Origin: Lysobacteraceae bacterium
GTDB lineage: Bacteria; Pseudomonadota; Gammaproteobacteria; Xanthomonadales; Xanthomonadaceae
Reading direction: 5' to 3'
Length of the DNA stretch: 64,000 nt
Assembly (NCBI GenBank): GCA_026005075.1
Contig: BPKJ01000009.1
Span: forward strand, 3,435 to 67,434
Below, piece by piece: positions 8,369 through 25,510 of this stretch. The notes beneath the pieces are model-generated. The model saw only the letters and a list, made by a program, of their open reading frames with translations. It was not told the DNA's origin and searched no databases. The stretch's first letter is position 1. Every line of letters begins with the position of its first letter. The translations under genes and the position numbers were made by a program.

Positions 8369-9550
8369 TCAGGGCCCGAGCGTGCCGGCCGGCACCCTGA
8401 CCCAGCCCTCCATCAGCACGCGCGCGCTGCGGCTCATGCGGGCACGCCGCACCACCCAGCGGCCAGCGAGCTCCTCGACCTCGGCGCCGACCCGCATGGT
8501 TCCGGACGGATGGCCGAAGCGCAGGTCGCTCCGCGGCCCGCCGGCGGCTTCGCTGACCACGGTGCCGGGGATGGAGGCCGCGGTGGCCAGCGCGACCGCG
8601 GCGGTACCCATCATGGCGTGGTGCAGCTTGCCCATCGACAGTGCGCGGGCGAGCAGGTCGATGTCGTCGGCACGCACCGCCCTGCCGCTGGAGGCGGTGT
8701 AGTCGGCCGGCGCTGCGACGAAGGCGACCTTGGGGGTGTGCTGGCGCCGGGCCGCCTCGGCCTCGTCGCGGATCAGCCCCATGCGCAGGGCCCCGGCGGT
8801 GCGCAGCGCCTCGAAGCGTGCCAGCCGCGCGGGATCGCCGTTGATCTCTTCCTGCAACTCGGTGCCCCGGCAGCCGACGTCGGCGGCGCGCACGAACACG
8901 GTCGGGATGCCGGCGTTGATCAGGGTGGCCTCGACGCGGCCCAGGCCCGGCACGTCCAGAACGTCGACGAGCCGGCCGGTCGGAAACATGGCCCCGCCCT
9001 CGCCCTCGTCGTCGGCCGGATCGAGGAACTCGAGCGCGATCTCGGCGGAGGGGAAGGCCACGCCGTCGAGCATGAAGTCCCCTTCCTCGACCACCTCGCC
9101 CGCCTTGACCGGCACGTGGGCGAGGATGGTCTTGCCGATGTTGGCCTGCCAGATCCGCACCGTGGCGGTGCCCTCGGCGGGCAGCCGCTGAGGATCGATC
9201 AGGCCCTGGGCGATGGCGAACGGGCCGACCGCGGCGCTGAGGTTGCCGCAGTTGCCGCTCCAGTCCACGAAGGGGCGGTCGATGGAGACCTGGCCGTAGA
9301 GGTAGTCGACGTCGTGGCCGGGCCGGGTGCTGGGGGCGACGATCACGCACTTGCTGGTGCTGGAGGTCGCCCCGCCCATGCCGTCCGTGTGCTTGCCGTA
9401 GGGATCGGGGCTGCCGATGACCCGCAGCAGCAGGGCATCGCGGGCCGGCCCCGGCTGGCGGGCCGGAGCTGGCAGGTCGGCAAGGCGGAAGAACACGCCC
9501 TTGCTGGTGCCGCCACGCATGTAGACGGCGGGAATGCGAAGCGCGGACAT
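8369..9550 (-). CDS. prpF: 2-methylaconitate cis-trans isomerase PrpF
   Basis: YMRGGTSKGVFF, GSPDPYGKHTDGMGGATSSTSK, WSGNCGNL, SMGKLHHAMMGT motifs. Confidence 0.95.
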   Translation of the reverse strand: MSALRIPAVYMRGGTSKGVFFRLADLPAPARQPGPARDALLLRVIGSPDPYGKHTDGMGGATSSTSKCVIVAPSTRPGHDVDYLYGQVSIDRPFVDWSGNCGNLSAAVGPFAIAQGLIDPQRLPAEGTATVRIWQANIGKTILAHVPVKAGEVVEEGDFMLDGVAFPSAEIALEFLDPADDEGEGGAMFPTGRLVDVLDVPGLGRVEATLINAGIPTVFVRAADVGCRGTELQEEINGDPARLARFEALRTAGALRMGLIRDEAEAARRQHTPKVAFVAAPADYTASSGRAVRADDIDLLARALSMGKLHHAMMGTAAVALATAASIPGTVVSEAAGGPRSDLRFGHPSGTMRVGAEVEELAGRWVVRRARMSRSARVLMEGWVRVPAGTLGP

Positions 9551-18126: not shown

Positions 18127-19782
18127 CTAGCGGCGCCGCGGCCACGCGGCATGGAAGGCGCCGAGCGCGCCGAGGGCGGCGATCCACACCGCGGCCGCCA
18201 CGCCGAAAAAGCGAGGCCCGCCGGCCTCGAGCGAGTAGAGCACCGCCGCGGTCACCATCAGGCCGGTGCCGAGGATGGCGTAGACGGTCTTGCGCTGGCC
18301 CTCGCGGCTGGCCTCCACCAGCGCGCGCAGCTCCTCGGAATGCATGACGAGATGGTGCTGGCCGTTGGTCTGCTGGCGCAGCCACTCGCGGACCAGGCGG
18401 GGCATGTCGGGCGCATGGGTGACCAGTTCGGGGATGCGCTTGACCAGCTCCCGCCTGAGCTGCGTGGCGCTGTAGCGCTCGCGGAGGATCCTTTCCAGCA
18501 CCGGGTGGGCGACGCCGAAGATGTCCAGCTCGGGGTCGAGCAGCCGCCCAAGCCCCTCGATGTTGAGCAGGGTCTTCTGCAGCAGGATCAACTGCGGCTG
18601 CAGGGTCAGCTCGTACTGCCTCGCGGTGCGGAACAGCTTGGCCACCACCTCGCCGAGGGCGATCTGCGCCAGCGGGCGGGTGAAGTAGGGTTCGCAGACG
18701 GCGCGGGTGGCGGCCTCGAGTTCGTCGATGCGCACCGTCGCCGGCATCCAGCCGGCCTCCACGTGCAGTTCCGCGATGCGCCGGTAGTCGCGCTGGAACA
18801 TGGCCATGAAGTTCTCGGCCAGGAAGTACTGGTCGCGGCTGGTGAGCTGGCCCATGATCCCGAAGTCGAGCGCGATGAAACGCGGGTCCGCCGGCCGGGT
18901 CGGGTCGACCCAGATGTTTCCGGCGTGGGCGTCGGCGTGGAAGAAGTTGTCGCGGAAGACCTGGGTGTAGAACAGGCGCACACCCTTGGCGGCGAGCAGC
19001 CGGCGGTCGATCCCGGCGGCGTCGAGGGCGGCGATGTCGTCGCTGGGTATGCCGCGCACGCGCTCCAGGGTGAGCACCCGCCGGTGACTGTGGCTCCAGT
19101 ACACGGCGGGGATGTACAGATCCGGCGAATCGAGCCAGTTGCGCCGCAGTACCGAGGCGTTGGCACCCTCGCGCTGGAGGTCGAGCTCGCCCTTGAGCGT
19201 GGCCTCGATCTCGGCAATGACGTCGAGCGGCCGAATCTTGTCGGCCCGCGGGTGATGCCGCGCGGCGATTTCGGCCAGCGCCCGAAGGAGGGCGAGGTCG
19301 GCCTCGATCCTCGCCTCGATGCCGGGACGCAGCACCTTGACCACGACCTCCGTGCCATCGGCCAGCCTCGCGGCATGGACCTGGGCGATCGACGCCGAGG
19401 CCAGCGGGGTCCGCTCGAACTCGACGAACAGCGCGTCGATGGGCTTGCCCAGTTCCTGCTCCACGATCCGTTGCGCCTCGCCGCCGTCGAACGGCGCCAC
19501 CCGGTCCTGGAGCAGGGCCAGTTCCTCGGCGATGTCCTCGGGCAGCAGGTCGCGCCGGGTCGACAGCACCTGTCCGGCCTTGACGAAGATCGGGCCCAGT
19601 TCCTGCAGGGCCAGGCGCAGGCGTGCCCCCCGGGACAGGCCTGCGACCTCGCCGCGGGCCTTGGGCACCAGCGGCCGCAGCACGCGCAGGAGGGGCTCGG
19701 CGCCGCCGCCCTCGAGCAGCGAGTCGAGCCGGTAGCGCACCAGCACCCGCAGGATGCGGGCGGCGCGGAGCAGGCTTCTCAT
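18127..19782 (-). CDS. ubiB: Ubiquinone biosynthesis protein kinase-like UbiB
   Basis: [51 protein letters not shown]. Confidence 0.95.
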
Positions 19783-20423
19783 CGCGTGGCCTCGCGGCGG
19801 GGCGCGAGGCGGTCGAGCCTTGCCTCCAGCCGCTCCACCGCTTCGCGCAGCGCATCCACCTCGTCGAAGAAGGCTTCCTGCTCGGCCCGCGAGACGAGGT
19901 CGCGACGCTCCTCGACGAGATGCTCGACGCCGCCGCGGAGCAGGCCGCGGCCCAGCTCCCGGCCCTGCCGCAGGGCCTCGCGCAGGGCCTGCGCGATCTG
20001 CACGCCGAGGACCTCGCCGAACACGCCCGCAAAGGCGTCTTCGAGATCGGGGTCGAAGTCCGCAGCCAGCCGTTGCAGCTGGCGGGCGAGCTCGACGTCG
20101 CCCTCGATGCGGAGCTGCCCGGGTGCGGCCGCCGGCGTGCCCGGAAGCAGCCGGCTCAGCACCGCACCCAGGCCGGCCTTCAGGCGCAGGTCGGGCTCGG
20201 GGTCGGAGGCGGCCGGGCCGACGCGGATGCGCCCGGCCTCCACGCGGAGTTCCATGCCCAGCGGAGGCGCGGCGAGGTGGAGCTGGATGCGGCGGCCCTC
20301 GAGCTCCGCCAGCCGCTCGCGCGCCTCGGGGTCGAGGGCAAGAGCGCGGCCGAGGGCGGCCTCGAGCAGGGCGCCGGCCGCCGGCAGGGCGGCCCGCAGA
20401 GGGTTGGGAGCAGGCGGATTCAT
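19779..20423 (-). CDS. ubiJ: Ubiquinone biosynthesis accessory factor UbiJ (SCP2 domain)
   Basis: [35 protein letters not shown]; stop overlaps ubiB start. Confidence 0.9.
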
Positions 20424-20586
20424 GCGGCCATTGTAGGCCGGATGCAGGTGCGGACGGGTCGGCGCTGCGGCGCCGGCAACCGGAAGCCGGACCCAGGTGG
20501 CGAGCGGCCGCTGCGGTCTGCCCGGGGTCCGGCACGTCCTCGCCAACGGCCGCACGCCGACCCGCACGCTGCGGGTGTTTCCCCTC

Positions 20587-20614
20587 TTGGCAGCGGCCGG
20601 GGAAGCGCTATGCT
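20587..20614 (+). promoter_or_regulatory. Putative sigma70 promoter of the ECF/anti-sigma operon
   Basis: TTGGCA-N16-TATGCT, followed by GGAGG at 20628-20632 before ATG 20642. Confidence 0.4.
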
Positions 20615-20641
20615 GGCCCTGCGGCATGGAGGTGCGGGCGG

Positions 20642-21289
20642 ATGGCTGGCGGGTGCGGCACCAACTCGGCAGCGGAACGGGCGCGACCCGCGTTGCGGGT
20701 CGTCGGCGGCCGTGCGCGCGGGGCGCTCGACTACGCCGAGCTGCTCCAGCGCGTGGCCGCGGGCGATGCGCTGGCCGAAACGGAGCTGCTGCGCGCGCTC
20801 TCGGAGCCGCTGGCGCTGGTGCTCCGCCGGCGCCTGGGCCGCGACGAGCGCTGCGCCGACCTGCAGCAGGACACACTGCTTGCCGTGCTCGAGGCGGCAC
20901 GGGCAGGGCGCATCCGCGAGCCGCAGGCGCTGGTCGAGTTCACGCTGTCCACGGCACGCCAGCTCGCGCTCAATCTCGAGCGCAAGCGGCGTCGGCGGCG
21001 TACCGATCCGGACAGCGAGGCGCTGGAGCGGATGGCCGACCCGAACCAGGCCGGCATGGCCGAGGCGCTGGCCCTCGAGGAGCGGCGGCACTGCGTGCGG
21101 GCGGTGCTGGCTTCGATGCCCAACCCGCGTGACCGCCAGATCCTGTTCAGCTACTACCTCGACCAGCAGCCGACCCGGCAGGTGCAGGCCCGCTTCGCGC
21201 TCGACAGCGTGCAGCTGGGCCGGGTCCTGCACCGGGCCCGCCAGCGTTTCGCGGCGCTGTGGCGGGCGCTGCGCCTCGACCCGACCTGA
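20642..21289 (+). CDS. ECF RNA polymerase sigma factor
   Basis: Region 2 (AAGDALAE..DLQQDTLLAVL..ARQLALN) and region 4 HTH (RDRQILFSYY..GRVLHRARQRF). Confidence 0.88.
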   Translation: MAGGCGTNSAAERARPALRVVGGRARGALDYAELLQRVAAGDALAETELLRALSEPLALVLRRRLGRDERCADLQQDTLLAVLEAARAGRIREPQALVEFTLSTARQLALNLERKRRRRRTDPDSEALERMADPNQAGMAEALALEERRHCVRAVLASMPNPRDRQILFSYYLDQQPTRQVQARFALDSVQLGRVLHRARQRFAALWRALRLDPT

Positions 21290-21318: not shown

Positions 21319-21951
21319 ATGCCGATGCCGCCGCCGAAGCTTTCCGACGAGGACAATCGCCTGCTGCGGGCCTGGCGCAGGGGCGATCTGGACGAGGAGG
21401 CCAGCCTCGCCTTCGAGACCCGGCTTTTTCTGGAACCGGGCCTGCTGCGCGCGGCCCAGATCGACGAGGCCATGGCGGGCGGGCTGGGCGACGAGGCGCA
21501 AGGTCGGCAGCCGGGCAGGGAGCCTGCGTGGCCGTGGAAGCTGGTGGCCGGACTGGCGCTGGCGGCCGGGATGGCCGGGGCCGTGCTCTGGCCGTTGCGC
21601 CAGGATACCCGCACCCTGCTGGCCGCCGGCAAGGTCGAGTGGGTCAGCCTCGATGTGCGCAGGGGTGGCGGGGAGCCGATGATGGTCGCTCCCGGGCCCG
21701 ACACGCGCCTGCTCGCGCTGGAAGTGCCGGTGCCGGGAGGTGACGATGGCCTCTACGACCTGAGCGTGATCCCGGCGACCGGGGGGCAGGCTCCGATCCA
21801 GGTCAGCCGGCTGAGCGCCGAGCAGGGCATGCTCAACCTTGCCTTCGAGCGGGAGGCCCTGCCGCCGGGCGTGTACTTCGTTGAGATCCGTGCCCACGGC
21901 GAGCAGGAAGGCCAGCCCCTGCAGAAGCTGGCCTTCCGCTATCGGCGCTGA
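21319..21951 (+). CDS. Putative single-pass anti-sigma factor
   Basis: Directly downstream of the ECF gene with GGAGGA RBS; N-terminal anti-sigma-like helices (WRRGDLDEEASLAFETRL), TM WKLVAGLALAAGMAGAVLW, beta-rich C-terminal domain. Confidence 0.72.
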   Translation: MPMPPPKLSDEDNRLLRAWRRGDLDEEASLAFETRLFLEPGLLRAAQIDEAMAGGLGDEAQGRQPGREPAWPWKLVAGLALAAGMAGAVLWPLRQDTRTLLAAGKVEWVSLDVRRGGGEPMMVAPGPDTRLLALEVPVPGGDDGLYDLSVIPATGGQAPIQVSRLSAEQGMLNLAFEREALPPGVYFVEIRAHGEQEGQPLQKLAFRYRR

Positions 21952-21962
21952 GCCTTGAGCAA

Positions 21963-22346
21963 TCAATAGTTGGGATCGCCCTCGTCGGGGTCGATGTCGT
22001 GCTCGCTGCCCTGCGTTGCGGCGGCTCCGTCCTCGCTGGAGTCGGCCCCGAGCAGTTCCTTGAGCCAATCCAGCCAGCCGGCCTCCGCCTCGTCGCCGAG
22101 GCTCGGCGTATCGGCCGGCGCGAGCGGCTCCGCGGCGACGCCGCCCATGGCGCCCAGACCCAGCAGCAGGGCCAGCAGCAGGGCCGGGCGCAGCGGCCAT
22201 GGGTGGTTGCGGCGTGCCTTCTCGCGTGCACGCGGGTCGAGAAAGACCTGCCGCTCCCAGGCGGCGTGGTCGTGGTGGCGGTCCGGGCTCGCGGTGCGGT
22301 CGGCGCGGTTGCGGCGCGGGGTATGGCCCTTGGTGTGTGCATGCAT
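21963..22346 (-). CDS. Small secreted acidic protein / peptide precursor (127 aa)
   Basis: GGAGG RBS before ATG; hydrophobic ALLLALLLGLGAMGGVAA with AxA cleavage site; acidic mature region ending GSEHDIDPDEGDPNY. Confidence 0.65.
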   Translation of the reverse strand: MHAHTKGHTPRRNRADRTASPDRHHDHAAWERQVFLDPRAREKARRNHPWPLRPALLLALLLGLGAMGGVAAEPLAPADTPSLGDEAEAGWLDWLKELLGADSSEDGAAATQGSEHDIDPDEGDPNY

Positions 22347-22447
22347 GATCCAGTCCTCCGTGGTCGTGGACCGCCGACATGGCGGCCCGCCTCGGAGGTG
22401 TCCCGAGCACGCGCGATCTCCCACCCCCGCGGGATGGCGGGTTGCGG

Positions 22448-25400
22448 TCAGCCTGCGCTGGGGGCGCGGCGGAGGACGAACCAGCCTGCCCAATGCGTCG
22501 GGTGGCGCAGTGCGGGTTGCCGCAGCAGCTCGGCCCTGGCCTCGGCGAGCGCGCGCTCGGGGGCGTCGGGCTGGCGGGCGAGGGCGCGGTGGAAGGCCAC
22601 CGAGAAGGCCATCGCCGCGCGATCCCCGACCGCCCAGCGCGAGCCGACCACGGCGTCCGCGCCGGCTTCGGCCAGCGCCTCGGCGACGCCGCCGACCCCA
22701 AGGCCGAAGAGGCCGCCGCCACGGCCGGTCTCGCAGGCCGAGAGGACCACCAGCCCGGCGTTGACCGCGAGACCGCGAAGGCGTTGCGCGCTCAGGAAAT
22801 CGGGGCGGTCACCGGTTCCGGCCAGCCACAGGCCGGAGGCCTCGAAGCGGTGGGTCGAGGCACGGGCGTGGGTGGCGAGATGGATCAGGGCACCGGGGGC
22901 GGCCAGTGCCTCCAAAAGGTCGGTGCGGCGGGCTCGGCTGTGGACGCTGACCGGCGCCGACGCCGCCCAGGTGTCCGCGACCGCGGTCAGCTCGGCCTGC
23001 ACGGCATGGAGCGGGGGCAGCCCGGCGCCCGGGCTGCCCGCCACGCCCAGTACGCGCACGGTGCGGGGCTGGGGCGTGGCGCGTGGATCGGGGCCCAGCA
23101 CCCAGCCGATCGCGGGGTGCAGGCCCTCGGGCAGCGCAAGGCTGAGCGGCGTGGTCGCCAGCGCCTGCTGCGCCCCGATCCACAAGGTGTGCACGCCAGG
23201 GCGCAGCCATCGTTCCCAGCCCAGCGCGGCACGCAGCGCGGCCGCCCGGCGCCCGATCTCGGCGCTGTCGCCATGACCCTCGGCGAGCAGCGTCAGCAAG
23301 GCGCTGCGGGCATCCAGAAAGGCCTCCCGGTCGATGGGCCACCAGGACCAGCGCCGGCCGTCGAGGATCAGCCAACCCATGTCCTCCTCCGAGACCAGGG
23401 GCAGGGCCAGCATCACGCCGGCGCCAAGCCGGGGAGGATCCGGGGCGAGGTGGGCGGGGGCGGCGGGCGGTCTGGGATCGGGCGCGGCGCCGGGCAGGGC
23501 AAGGCGCAAGGCCGGGCCCGCAGGGGCGGGGGCATCGGTCTCGGCCAGCCACTCGGCGGCGAGCGCGCGCTCCAGGGCGAGCAGACGGTCGTCGGCGGTC
23601 GGTGCCAGCGCGGCCATCTGGGTCTGGGCCAGCCGCGCCGCCCAGTGATGGACGCGGGCACCCAGCGCCGGATCGACCGCGCCGGGCGCCTGGGTGGCGA
23701 GGACGCTGGCCCCGAGTCGGTGCAGGCTGGCGAGCAGCGCCTGCCGCAGCGCCGGCGTGCGCAACGTGGATGCGATCGGCAGGAACCGGTCGAGGAGTCG
23801 CTCGGCGAGGTCGAGCGCGTCGGTTCCGCCCTCCCGTCCGCGCTGGCGGATGCAATGCTCGCCAAGCTCCAGCGCCAGCAGCAGCGGTCCTTCCTCGAGA
23901 ACCTGCCGCAGGCTGGCTTCGCAGTCGATGGCGGGCGTTGCGGTCAGGCCGAGCGCGGCGCCGAGCAGACGGGCGCGCAGCGCCAGCCTGGGCTCGCGCG
24001 GCACGCCCACCTGGCTCAGCGCCGCGCGCGCCGCGGCCGGGTTGCCGGCGCGGCGGTGGATCTCGCCGAGGGTCAGCAAGGCGCGTTCGCCGAGACCGAC
24101 CTCGCCGAGCCGGGTCAGTTCGGCCATGGCCCGATCGGCCTGCTCGCGGGCGGCCTCGGTCTCGCCAAGGTCCAACTGCGCCTGCGCCAGCGCGAGCCGG
24201 ATCCGTGCGCGCTGGCGTGACGGCGAGGTGCCCTGCAGCCGCTGCACGGCGCTTTCGAAGAACACCACCGCGCGGCCGGCCTCGCCGGCCAGGCGGTAGG
24301 TGCTGCCCAGCAGGTAGTCGATGCGGGCTGCGCCGGCGGTGTCTTGGGGGTCGGTGCGGGCCGCGACCTCGCCGAGCAGGGCCAGCGCCTCGTCGAAGCG
24401 GCCTGCCCAGGTCAGCTGCTGGGCCCGCTGCCGGCGCAGGCTGGCATGGGCCTCGGGCTGGCTGGCGAGGACCGGCATGCGTGCGGCCCGGTCGAGTTCC
24501 TCGCCCGCCTCGCGGTAGCGCCCCGCCAGGCTCAGCGCGGTGGCGAGGTTGAGGCGGGTGTAGAGCGCGGCGGCCGCCTCACCCAGCGCGAGCTGGCGCG
24601 CCACCACCCTCCGGTAGCAGGCGATGGCGGGTTCGAGCGCACCGAGCAGGCGCTGCTGCAGGCAGACGCCGTGCTCCGCCACGGTGGCGGGGTAGGCCAT
24701 GCCCAGTTCGAGGAAGCGTTGGCGGGCTTCCTCCAGCCGCGCCAGCGCACGCTGGCCGTCACGCTCGCGCAGGGCCCGGCCCTCGGCGAGCAGGGCGTGC
24801 GCCAGCAGGCGTGGCGGTCCGCGCGTGCGCGCACGCTGCACCAGCACCGCTGCCCAGCCGGCGGCCTCGGCGTCGAGGTGGCTATCCTCGGCCAGTCGCC
24901 ACAGCTGGCCGAGCACCCAGTCCTGCTCGGCTGCGCCCAGCCCTGGCGCGGCGCGCAGCAGGAACAGGCGGGCGGCGAGCAGGGCGGCCGCGAGCGGATC
25001 CGGGCCGCTGCGCAGGCGGGCATGCGCCACCGCCAGCTCGGCGAGTCGGGCCGCGTTGCGCGCGGCGGGATCCTGCTCGGCGACGCAGCTCAGCGCGACG
25101 GCGGGCAGGGGTCGGTCGGGGCCTTCCGCGTGCCGTATCGCCCTCGACCAGACGGGGTCGGCGGCGGCGCTGAGGTGCACCGGCACCGCACCCTCGCGCG
25201 GCGGCCAGGTCGGCAGGGCCCGGTCCGCGTCGAGCACCTCCCATTCGGCGCCGCGGTTGCGGATCCAGCCGATCACGGCCCAGCCGGGTTCGGGGCGCTC
25301 CACCCGTACCTGGTGCGCGTCCACCTCCGCCACCGGAGGATCCGGGCAGGCCGCGTGCACGGGGTCGAAGCGGGGCAGCACGGCCAGCGCCAGCACCAGC

Positions 25401-25483
25401 CAGCACGGCACGACCCGCCGCCGCGGCCGCTGCAGGATCCCTCGCGGTCGCGTCCTGCCGGCACTGGGGTGGCGGTCGGGCAT
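22448..25483 (-). CDS. TPR + CHAT (caspase-like C50/separase-related) domain protein with N-terminal signal-like segment
   Basis: TPR helices; CHAT motifs IHLATH (His at 22868-22870), LVVLSACETG (Cys at 22733-22735), AVVGSRWAVGD, HPTHWAGW. Confidence 0.88.
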   Translation of the reverse strand: MPDRHPSAGRTRPRGILQRPRRRVVPCWLVLALAVLPRFDPVHAACPDPPVAEVDAHQVRVERPEPGWAVIGWIRNRGAEWEVLDADRALPTWPPREGAVPVHLSAAADPVWSRAIRHAEGPDRPLPAVALSCVAEQDPAARNAARLAELAVAHARLRSGPDPLAAALLAARLFLLRAAPGLGAAEQDWVLGQLWRLAEDSHLDAEAAGWAAVLVQRARTRGPPRLLAHALLAEGRALRERDGQRALARLEEARQRFLELGMAYPATVAEHGVCLQQRLLGALEPAIACYRRVVARQLALGEAAAALYTRLNLATALSLAGRYREAGEELDRAARMPVLASQPEAHASLRRQRAQQLTWAGRFDEALALLGEVAARTDPQDTAGAARIDYLLGSTYRLAGEAGRAVVFFESAVQRLQGTSPSRQRARIRLALAQAQLDLGETEAAREQADRAMAELTRLGEVGLGERALLTLGEIHRRAGNPAAARAALSQVGVPREPRLALRARLLGAALGLTATPAIDCEASLRQVLEEGPLLLALELGEHCIRQRGREGGTDALDLAERLLDRFLPIASTLRTPALRQALLASLHRLGASVLATQAPGAVDPALGARVHHWAARLAQTQMAALAPTADDRLLALERALAAEWLAETDAPAPAGPALRLALPGAAPDPRPPAAPAHLAPDPPRLGAGVMLALPLVSEEDMGWLILDGRRWSWWPIDREAFLDARSALLTLLAEGHGDSAEIGRRAAALRAALGWERWLRPGVHTLWIGAQQALATTPLSLALPEGLHPAIGWVLGPDPRATPQPRTVRVLGVAGSPGAGLPPLHAVQAELTAVADTWAASAPVSVHSRARRTDLLEALAAPGALIHLATHARASTHRFEASGLWLAGTGDRPDFLSAQRLRGLAVNAGLVVLSACETGRGGGLFGLGVGGVAEALAEAGADAVVGSRWAVGDRAAMAFSVAFHRALARQPDAPERALAEARAELLRQPALRHPTHWAGWFVLRRAPSAG

Positions 25484-25510
25484 CGGCCTGCCGGGCGGGA
25501 AGCCGACCGG

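Follow-up and report, generated by a model that had tools for sequence, protein, structure and literature searches.

Our analyses centered on a small open reading frame (ORF) in a 64,000-nucleotide stretch of the Lysobacteraceae bacterium contig BPKJ01000009.1, referred to here in its full 64-kb length as the window, and on the three genes that adjoin it. The ORF occupies positions 21963..22346 on the minus strand and encodes 127 aa plus a stop codon; from its translation, its codon-position GC content and its full-length family matches we describe the predicted product as an anti-σ-like acidic preprotein. Directly upstream, across a gap of 101 nt, lies the gene for a 1,011-aa TPR-CHAT protease with an N-terminal signal sequence (22448..25483, minus strand; Pfam CHAT at 2.9e-37 plus TPR). 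Convergent with the small gene are the gene for an extracytoplasmic function (ECF) σ factor (20642..21289, plus strand; TIGR02937 sigma70-ECF at 1.6e-12) and, 29 nt after it, the gene for a putative single-pass anti-σ factor of 210 aa with a transmembrane (TM) segment (21319..21951, plus strand). An earlier note on this DNA had proposed that the small ORF encodes a secreted peptide precursor that belongs to a CHAT/ECF module.

A conserved small gene directly downstream of CHAT

The earlier note quoted a 127-aa translation for 21963-22346 (minus strand), preceded by a strong GGAGG ribosome-binding site, and both points are borne out: the ORF translates to the quoted sequence, and GGAGGA (22354..22359, minus strand) stands 7 nt before the ATG (22344-22346). 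All relatives of the gene carry GGAG at the equivalent spacing before their start codons. The window has a GC content of 72.5%, and 92 ORFs of at least 60 aa occur within 18 kb. Since chance ORFs of such length are common at this composition, the length of the ORF is no evidence for a gene. Its GC content at codon positions 1, 2 and 3 is 0.80/0.53/0.87, as in the real genes of the window, and the frames that overlap it lack coding-type codon-position GC. Because of this signature, and because it has homologues of the same architecture, the small ORF is, as judged from its sequence, a genuine conserved protein-coding gene, previously unnamed.

An exhaustive profile search recovered 33 clusters (E ≤ 1e-3) among 1.84 billion representative proteins. 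All 33 have lengths of 102-150 aa, and nearly all were matched over most of their length. The family alignment comprises 37 sequences, to which all conservation counts below refer. A word-index protein search had returned the small protein itself and one copy, 84% identical, and later nine proteins. Profile scans gave no Pfam, NCBIfam or PADLOC match for the small protein, and a sequence search among Protein Data Bank (PDB) chains gave no usable match for its family. The named database copies are all "hypothetical protein", in keeping with the remark in the earlier note that such genes are easily missed by annotation.

That the ORF arose by chance in GC-rich DNA, or reflects a noncoding regulatory region or the 3′ untranslated region of CHAT, would fit the frequency of long chance ORFs at this composition, the missing Pfam and NCBIfam matches and the negative outcome of a search for RNA runs. 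Against this explanation stand the coding-type codon-position GC, a ribosome-binding site and start codon that are conserved and keep register with the conserved promoter, an in-frame insertion or deletion that keeps the reading frame, and the 33 clusters of full-length homologues, which retain invariant residues at 17-46% identity. It is very improbable indeed, and we consider it effectively refuted already.

To place the gene in context, we gathered loci that encode CHAT or anti-σ relatives and added contigs for five distant family members. In every locus with sequence downstream of CHAT, a 100- to 150-aa ORF of the same build directly follows CHAT. These loci come from Lysobacterales metagenome-assembled genomes, uncultured Lysobacter, Pseudomarimonas salicorniae CAU 1642 and P. 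arenosa CAU 1598, and the P. salicorniae locus (L010) is syntenic with the window, aconitase and UbiB genes included. Conversely, CHAT lies directly upstream and on the same strand in the window and in L002-L007, L009, L010, L013 and L016-L020, that is, in every locus with upstream sequence; the upstream fragment of L021 is too short to judge for CHAT and was left out of this count. The linkage to CHAT and ECF genes suggested in the earlier note is upheld. The σ/anti-σ pair is close by in nearly all loci, usually convergent right behind the small gene; it is ~2 kb away in L005, and one gene is inserted in L013.

The earlier note had also mentioned a W-x-W-L..G..IDP.G motif in small proteins beside CHAT genes and named the lack of such homologues next to CHAT/ECF genes as grounds for rejection. 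Homologues of this kind were found there, and the 37 members show little or no variation at W94, D119, P120 and G123. The same note placed them in "other lineages"; relatives do exist, but they come only from Lysobacterales genomes and from unclassified metagenome contigs. A narrow window-type pattern, searched genome-wide, matched in P. salicorniae only, and the DNA is present in hot-spring and wastewater metagenomes. Two starts among the relatives appear misplaced when set against the positions of promoter, hairpin and ribosome-binding site, which keep a common register: P0009 (L008, ~150-245) probably begins at an upstream GTG, with ~30 residues more, and the L013 protein (8730-9152, minus strand) probably starts at "MRGNFLSW" rather than "MVCGAG".

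An anti-σ-like region, predicted to be cytoplasmic

Residues 1-29 (22260..22346, minus strand) form a variable, basic, low-complexity N-terminus that is unalignable across the family. Residues 30-46 (22209..22259, minus strand), WERQVFLDPRAREKARR, form a conserved, predicted cytoplasmic motif that was traced by alignment, hhalign, hmmsearch and tblastn. Its family consensus is (W/I/V)-E-x-x-(L/I/V)-F-(F/L)-(D/Q)-P-x-L, with an invariant F35 and a nearly invariant E31. In the AlphaFold2 prediction, helices span residues 23-36 and 38-47, giving a helix-Pro-helix arrangement.

This region resembles the putative anti-σ factor encoded next door. The counterpart of WERQVFLDPRAREKARR in the anti-σ factor of the window is ETRLFLEPGLLRAAQ, and the anti-σ N-terminal motif set against it is AFETRLFLEPGLLRAAQ. 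In hhalign, the family matched six anti-σ orthologues with 96.5% probability and an E value of 8.4e-10 over 59 columns, which span the cytoplasmic region and the membrane segment; an earlier comparison with only nine sequences had given 83.8%. When the family profile was run with hmmsearch against the six-frame translation of the window, the anti-σ ORF was the sole other match (E = 3.2e-5), and a tblastn search with an anti-σ N-terminus hit the small gene of L018 with 51% identity over 43 aa (E = 4e-6). By these comparisons, the N-terminal region and hydrophobic segment of the small protein are homologous to the N-terminal domain and TM segment of the neighboring anti-σ factor. The small protein looks like a duplicate of the N-terminal half of the anti-σ factor in which the periplasmic domain has been swapped for an acidic tail.

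The anti-σ motif LLRAWRRGELD...ETRLFFEPxLL presumably aligns with the class I anti-σ consensus L.ayldGeL...e.HL..C..C, with the zinc ligands replaced. No His or Cys of the H-x3-C-x2-C zinc motif is present at the corresponding positions of WERQVFLDPRAREKARR. Unlike class I anti-σ genes, which lie immediately downstream of the σ gene and are cotranscribed with it, the small gene is convergent with the σ/anti-σ operon, lies 3′ of CHAT and has a promoter of its own. The earlier note had called this part of the protein a basic, His/Arg-rich leader. The composition is as described, with 11 Arg and 7 His among the first 53 residues and an isoelectric point of 11.8, but the leader also holds the conserved motif with E31 and F35 that is homologous to the anti-σ N-terminus. 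The label "secreted peptide precursor" likewise holds in part: an acidic exported tail is predicted, but the whole is better described as an anti-σ-like bipartite preprotein.

The DNA that encodes this region is unusually divergent between close relatives. L001, a 2.5-kb wastewater contig, is otherwise ~99% identical to the window, and 44 of the 73 differences between the two are packed into 22203-22335 (133 bp, codons 4-48), among them a 9-nt in-frame insertion. Strains X2 and X3 carry the window allele at 22203-22335 yet share flanking single-nucleotide polymorphisms with L001. The patch looks like an allele replacement by recombination, or like slippage in a stretch rich in CGC, CAC and GAC. 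Relaxed constraint alone is no explanation, since synonymous sites of the patch have also changed. A diversity-generating retroelement or phase variation was considered and rejected; the substitutions are not adenine-specific, and the other allele occurs in only one of four strains. The ORF also contains a terminator-like element (a 5-bp GC stem followed by AGGTCTTTCT; 22250-22265, minus strand) whose position coincides exactly with the codons for the conserved A-A-W-E-R-Q-V-F-L motif; Phe and Leu codons in GC-rich DNA probably account for it.

A probable Sec-type export segment with a predicted signal-peptidase I site

Residues 54-72 (22131..22187, minus strand), PALLLALLLGLGAMGGVAA, are uncharged and are followed by E73, as the earlier note had stated in describing a hydrophobic stretch that ends VAA|E. 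In the 37-member alignment they correspond to a Sec-type h- and c-region with a V-A-A|E signal-peptidase I site, V70-A71-A72|E73 in the window. The note's reading of the boundary as signal peptidase I-like is upheld by conservation across the family, from which cleavage is predicted. Ala occupies position −1 in 37 of 37 sequences. At −3 all 37 have a permitted residue, namely A in 21, V in 7, G in 5, S in 3 and L in 1. Position −2 is unconstrained, and at +1 most sequences have E, D, N or Q and none has Pro. The c-region has P, G or S at −3 to −8 in 35 of the 37. In the window, the h-region ALLLALLLGL is followed by GAMGGVAA and has the makeup expected of an h- and c-region.

Across the family the uncharged stretch measures 16-23 residues. 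The n-region before it, at 28-77 aa and with a conserved motif, is far longer than Sec n-regions, and no ESPR or other extended-signal Pfam family matched the small protein. Net charge ranges from 0 to +11 in the N-region and from −6 to −16 in the tail, an asymmetry that fits an N-in/C-out orientation. Two other export signals were considered and rejected. The residues before the h-region vary (KK, KR, SR, GK, AR or RR) and show no consistent RR-x-F-L-K of a Tat signal, and there is no Cys at +1 as in a lipoprotein.

A short acidic tail with two conserved elements

The tail (residues 73-127; 21966..22130, minus strand) comprises 55 aa and is, by composition and AlphaFold2, mostly disordered and predicted to be periplasmic. 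The earlier note's very acidic mature part is confirmed, with 9 Asp and 7 Glu against 1 Lys and a net charge of −15. Its only hydrophobic patch, DEAEAGWLDWLKELL (residues 85-99; 22050..22094, minus strand), contains WLDWLKELL in the window, includes the nearly invariant W94 and is predicted by AlphaFold2 to be helical at residues 85-98. This predicted Trp helix lies 12-26 residues past the signal-peptidase site.

The patch is preceded by an acidic Ser/Thr-rich linker whose sequence is not conserved but whose length is: it has 20-23 residues in two subtypes (11 in one member) and 28-30 in a third, and within a subtype the patch keeps a constant distance from the AXA site. A second acidic stretch precedes the C-terminal motif, DIDPDEGDPNY in the window (residues 117-127; 21966..21998, minus strand). 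Within its D-P-x-(E/D)-G core, D119 and P120 are invariant and G123 is nearly so, and the motif stands 7-8 residues from the C-terminus in 29 of 37 sequences. An EF-hand or DxDxDG calcium loop was considered for DIDPDEG and dismissed, as the family consensus is merely x-D-P-x-E-G.

A conserved two-block promoter motif precedes the small gene

A promoter-like motif of two blocks, TGGGAG-N15-GACACCT, with the geometry of ECF-type promoters, lies upstream of the small gene (22396..22423, minus strand) and was identified by pattern search in 21 loci. Its generalized form, TGnGAn-N15-(G/A)ACAC(C/T)T, occurs ~50 nt upstream of the small-gene start in 21 of 21 loci, always at the same distance; the pattern TGNGAN-N15-RACACYT matches once in the 64-kb window, against 0.02 matches expected. 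No σ70-type promoter was detected in the region upstream of the small gene. A fixed two-block geometry of this kind matches that of a promoter of the σ70 family, especially of the ECF type, and the adjacent ECF σ factor may be the one that uses it. The earlier note had suggested the small protein as a possible output of the module, an idea that fits a conserved two-block promoter of its own that is not of the σ70 type.

The predicted 5′ leader contains a GC-rich hairpin, GGGCCGCC-AUGUC-GGCGGUCC (22368..22388, minus strand; single-sequence folding). A hairpin occurs at the same position in 16 of 16 distinct leaders, with differing stem sequences, and its energies are only modestly better than those of shuffles (z scores of −0.5 to −2.4). 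No Rfam family matched the leader, and RNAalifold found no consensus structure in it, owing to the alignment register.

The ECF σ gene is preceded by a different element, the σ70-like promoter TTGGCA-N16-TATGCT (20587..20614, plus strand), which is conserved in eight loci; GCTATGCTGG is common to the upstream regions of the σ genes in these eight. The presence of a σ70-like promoter at the σ genes suggests that the σ/anti-σ operon is probably driven by the housekeeping σ factor, which makes the small gene a candidate σ-dependent target. Thus, the σ/anti-σ operon appears, from its promoter, not to be autoregulated, which would be unusual for ECF systems.

The TPR-CHAT, σ and anti-σ genes

The N-terminus of the CHAT protein of the window resembles a signal peptide, ...RRRVVPCWLVLALAVLPRFDPVHA|AC, and signal-peptide-like N-termini are also present in L009, L010, L013 and L019; the TPR-CHAT protein is accordingly predicted to be periplasmic. 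Its His (HLATHA) and Cys (LSACETG) dyad is conserved. A sequence search among PDB chains gave no usable match for the CHAT protein, and in PADLOC it gave only weak matches (BovA, SAVED_CHAT), through the shared CHAT domain. Orthologues of the ECF σ factor are present in related loci. That the 210-aa protein downstream of it is an anti-σ factor is suggested by its position, topology and N-terminal motif; its gene is conserved together with that of the σ factor in all loci.

Proposed role of the small protein

The interpretation that we favor, tentatively and as a real possibility that falls short of being probable, is that the small protein is a bipartite Sec-dependent preprotein with its own ECF-type promoter, which links the exported TPR-CHAT protein to the σ factor in the manner of a split DdvA or a miniature RsiV. 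On this composite reading the module would comprise four genes, for the σ factor, the anti-σ factor, the TPR-CHAT protein and the small protein, and the last would be the dedicated partner of CHAT. The adjacent ECF σ factor would transcribe the small gene, making the small protein an output of the module. The protein would insert N-in/C-out, and signal peptidase I would cut it behind A72, whether at all times or only under permissive conditions, as happens with RsiV and RsiP. The cut would yield an acidic periplasmic peptide of 5.7 kDa and an anti-σ-like fragment embedded in the membrane, which RseP or another site-2 protease would later clear. The tail would dock on the periplasmic TPR-CHAT protein through its Trp patch and C-terminal motif as a ligand, pseudosubstrate or substrate, and the anti-σ-like N-terminal part would contact the σ factor. 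Together, these steps would amount to feedback between periplasmic protease activity and σ activity, and the seeming σ dependence of the small gene would supply the feedback. The functional counterpart of the small protein would be the first ~140 residues of DdvA, comprising anti-σ domain, TM segment and flexible linker, here separate from TPR-CHAT.

Several observations weigh against this interpretation. The window subtype keeps only the second half of the anti-σ-like region, 17 residues, and member P0008 lacks the region altogether. Confidence in the AlphaFold2 model is low, with a predicted local distance difference test score (pLDDT) of 66, and in place of an anti-σ bundle of three or four helices the model has two short ones. 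The earlier note described the Trp helix as amphipathic; the hydrophobic moment of WLDWLKELL was equalled by 55 of 200 shuffles and so does not exceed chance, though a helix is predicted there. Charge complementarity between tail and CHAT had to be discarded, as the CHAT orthologues are net acidic. For the putative anti-σ factor, Pfam and PDB yielded no match and NCBIfam only a weak anti-σ one, and the two-block motif lacks the common AAC/CGT signature of ECF promoters. Finally, RNA-seq runs were sought for the window, P. salicorniae and the commonest relative, and none were found.

The same features can be read in other ways. The N-terminal part might serve for export only and could be an extended signal peptide by which targeting is tuned, so that a plain secreted or periplasmic 55-aa acidic peptide would be the sole product; it could act on CHAT as a ligand, substrate, securin-like pseudosubstrate inhibitor or chaperone and would make no contact with the σ factor. 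A perfectly conserved AXA site with a typical c-region and an acidic tail with conserved motifs would be expected from such a peptide, residues 1-29 are hypervariable, and P0008 keeps both the tail and the linkage to CHAT without the N-terminal motif. However, the n-region far exceeds those of Sec signals, a motif with an invariant Phe and a near-invariant Glu and with homology to anti-σ would be unexpected in a pure export signal, and the Pfam families of extended signals did not match; we regard this account as doubtful, though worth keeping in view. A permanently anchored protein is the opposite extreme. Here an uncleaved, signal-anchored mini anti-σ or co-anti-σ factor, a "split DdvA" with a stable TM anchor, would tether TPR-CHAT noncovalently through its tail and so be shielded from the site-2 protease, until cleavage or release of the tail by CHAT, and not signal peptidase, started degradation. 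Homology to both the anti-σ domain and its TM segment, an uncharged stretch of 16-23 residues and the intact CHAT dyad speak for an anchor, as does the DdvA model, in which TPR-CHAT blocks RseP until the linker is cut (PMC11506125). Yet a permanent anchor leaves unexplained the invariant Ala at −1, the permitted residue at −3 in 37 of 37 sequences and the c-region rich in Gly, Pro and Ser, the h-core has only ~10-12 residues, and the locus already encodes a canonical anti-σ factor. We consider such an anchor unlikely.

A further variant accepts the cut and assigns a function to both products. The precursor would be split by signal peptidase into two regulators in two compartments, a σ-binding "signal peptide" and a peptide that serves CHAT as a ligand, pseudosubstrate or inhibitor. 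The long signal peptide would then be an anti-σ-derived element, released or destroyed by a site-2 protease, and given the apparent σ dependence of the gene, one transcript would feed back on both ends of the pathway. We rate this variant, too, as improbable.

Comparison with known σ-regulating systems

The nearest precedent for the favored reading is DdvA of Myxococcus xanthus, an anti-σ factor in which a cytoplasmic domain, a TM segment and a flexible linker are fused to a periplasmic TPR-CHAT; it has been proposed that TPR-CHAT cuts the linker and that RseP completes the process (PMC11506125). The locus described here shares with DdvA an ECF σ factor under a membrane protein with a putative N-terminal anti-σ domain, one TM segment and a periplasmic linker, as well as a TPR-CHAT with a His/Cys dyad and a probable periplasmic location. 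The mechanism proposed for DdvA, CHAT-dependent site-1 cleavage followed by RseP, would also be shared. The differences are considerable. TPR-CHAT is here a separate protein that bears a signal peptide, and the counterpart of anti-σ domain, TM segment and linker is a protein of 127 aa whose gene follows that of TPR-CHAT. The CHCC zinc site is missing, a conventional anti-σ factor is present in addition, and a signal-peptidase site is predicted in the TM segment. Comparison with PDB chains, DdvA among them, showed no sequence similarity. The context here is one of housekeeping genes (aconitase, UbiB), with no CBASS/CRISPR island.

In RsiV and RsiP of Bacillus, site-1 cleavage is carried out by signal peptidase and gated by helices just past the site (PMC4183432, PMC6066255, PMC8844934). 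The small protein has a similar predicted succession of anti-σ-like region, TM segment and signal-peptidase I site, with a predicted Trp-containing helix after the site. In RsiV and RsiP, cleavage is triggered by extracellular ligand binding, and a folded ligand-binding domain stands where the small protein has a 55-aa acidic disordered tail. Moreover, the small gene lies outside the σ operon, the organisms are Gram-negative, and no sequence relationship is evident. RseP is known to remove signal peptides and small membrane proteins (PMC8144685, PMC10470546).

Likenesses to three further systems are looser. Craspase, a complex of Cas7-11 and the TPR-CHAT protein Csx29, cleaves Csx30, which holds an ECF σ factor (PMC10028731); there, as here, a TPR-CHAT is linked genetically to an ECF σ factor and to a small presumed target that regulates it. 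Craspase is cytoplasmic, RNA-guided and found in a CRISPR context, whereas our locus has no CRISPR, its proteins are predicted to be exported, and no similarity to Csx30 was seen. The pairing of a TPR-caspase-fold protease with a small, acidic, disordered partner recalls separase and securin, but as a functional analogy only, since that pair is eukaryotic and cytoplasmic and shows no sequence relationship. With RseA, DegS and RseP the module shares a periplasmic protease, a single-pass anti-σ factor and a conserved C-terminal motif as a possible recognition element; the protease, however, is of the CHAT and not the HtrA type, and the peptide motif is carried by a dedicated small protein rather than by outer-membrane proteins.

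ECF σ factors are a major signaling device of bacteria. Periplasmic CHAT (caspase-like) input into them is known from one fused protein only, DdvA. The CHAT-dependent proteolysis proposed for DdvA could reportedly not be tested, because the signal is unknown. The same parts occur here as separate genes, including in cultured Pseudomarimonas strains, and the interactions between protease and substrate and between small protein and σ factor would therefore be testable in trans, with short peptides and simple deletions. This split architecture, which makes the link from CHAT to σ testable in culture, is relevant to both the ECF signaling and the bacterial caspase-like protease fields. We found no description of the four-gene arrangement in the literature searched; it is a new arrangement of known parts, namely ECF σ factor, regulated proteolysis, CHAT and signal peptidase. 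With it come a family of small proteins that has invariant residues but no annotation, a defined promoter motif for an ECF group not characterized before and, possibly, a signal peptide that is itself regulatory. To our knowledge, neither a signal peptide with such a dedicated regulatory function nor an ECF system with a periplasmic CHAT site-1 protease acting in trans has been described.

Additional promoter copies, convergent transcription and flanking genes

Second copies of TGnGAn-N15-GACACYT with a downstream hairpin occur in four loci: L006 (4120-4147), L007 (4022-4049), L009 (5206-5233, minus strand) and L010 (5042-5069, minus strand). Those of L006 and L007 stand before a gene upstream of CHAT that encodes a caspase-like "ALCIG(I/V)D(A/S)Y" motif, and those of L009 and L010 before a gene of ~250 aa (M[A/P]RNFDGRLPR...) that is divergent from the σ gene and absent from the window. 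The genes behind these copies are likely to be further members of the regulon.

The small gene and the anti-σ gene converge, with their stop codons 11 nt apart (21949-21965), and no terminator was detected between them; in relatives, the gap between the two genes ranges from a 4-nt overlap to ~80 nt. Transcripts that start at the promoter of the small gene should run antisense into the anti-σ and σ genes, which could lead to transcriptional interference or antisense control.

On the other side of the module, an aconitase gene lies upstream of CHAT. The CHAT start follows the aconitase stop by 27 nt (25484-25510), the same junction is found in P. salicorniae (L010), and no copy of the two-block promoter precedes CHAT in the window; CHAT may be cotranscribed with this housekeeping gene. 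Beyond the σ gene, an ORF of 802 aa (18127-20535, minus strand) encodes an ABC1/UbiB kinase domain at residues 342-591. The true UbiB start is probably to be sought ~240 codons into this ORF. The region ~19800-20640 may thus be no more than a chance extension of the ORF, or else contain a further small gene.

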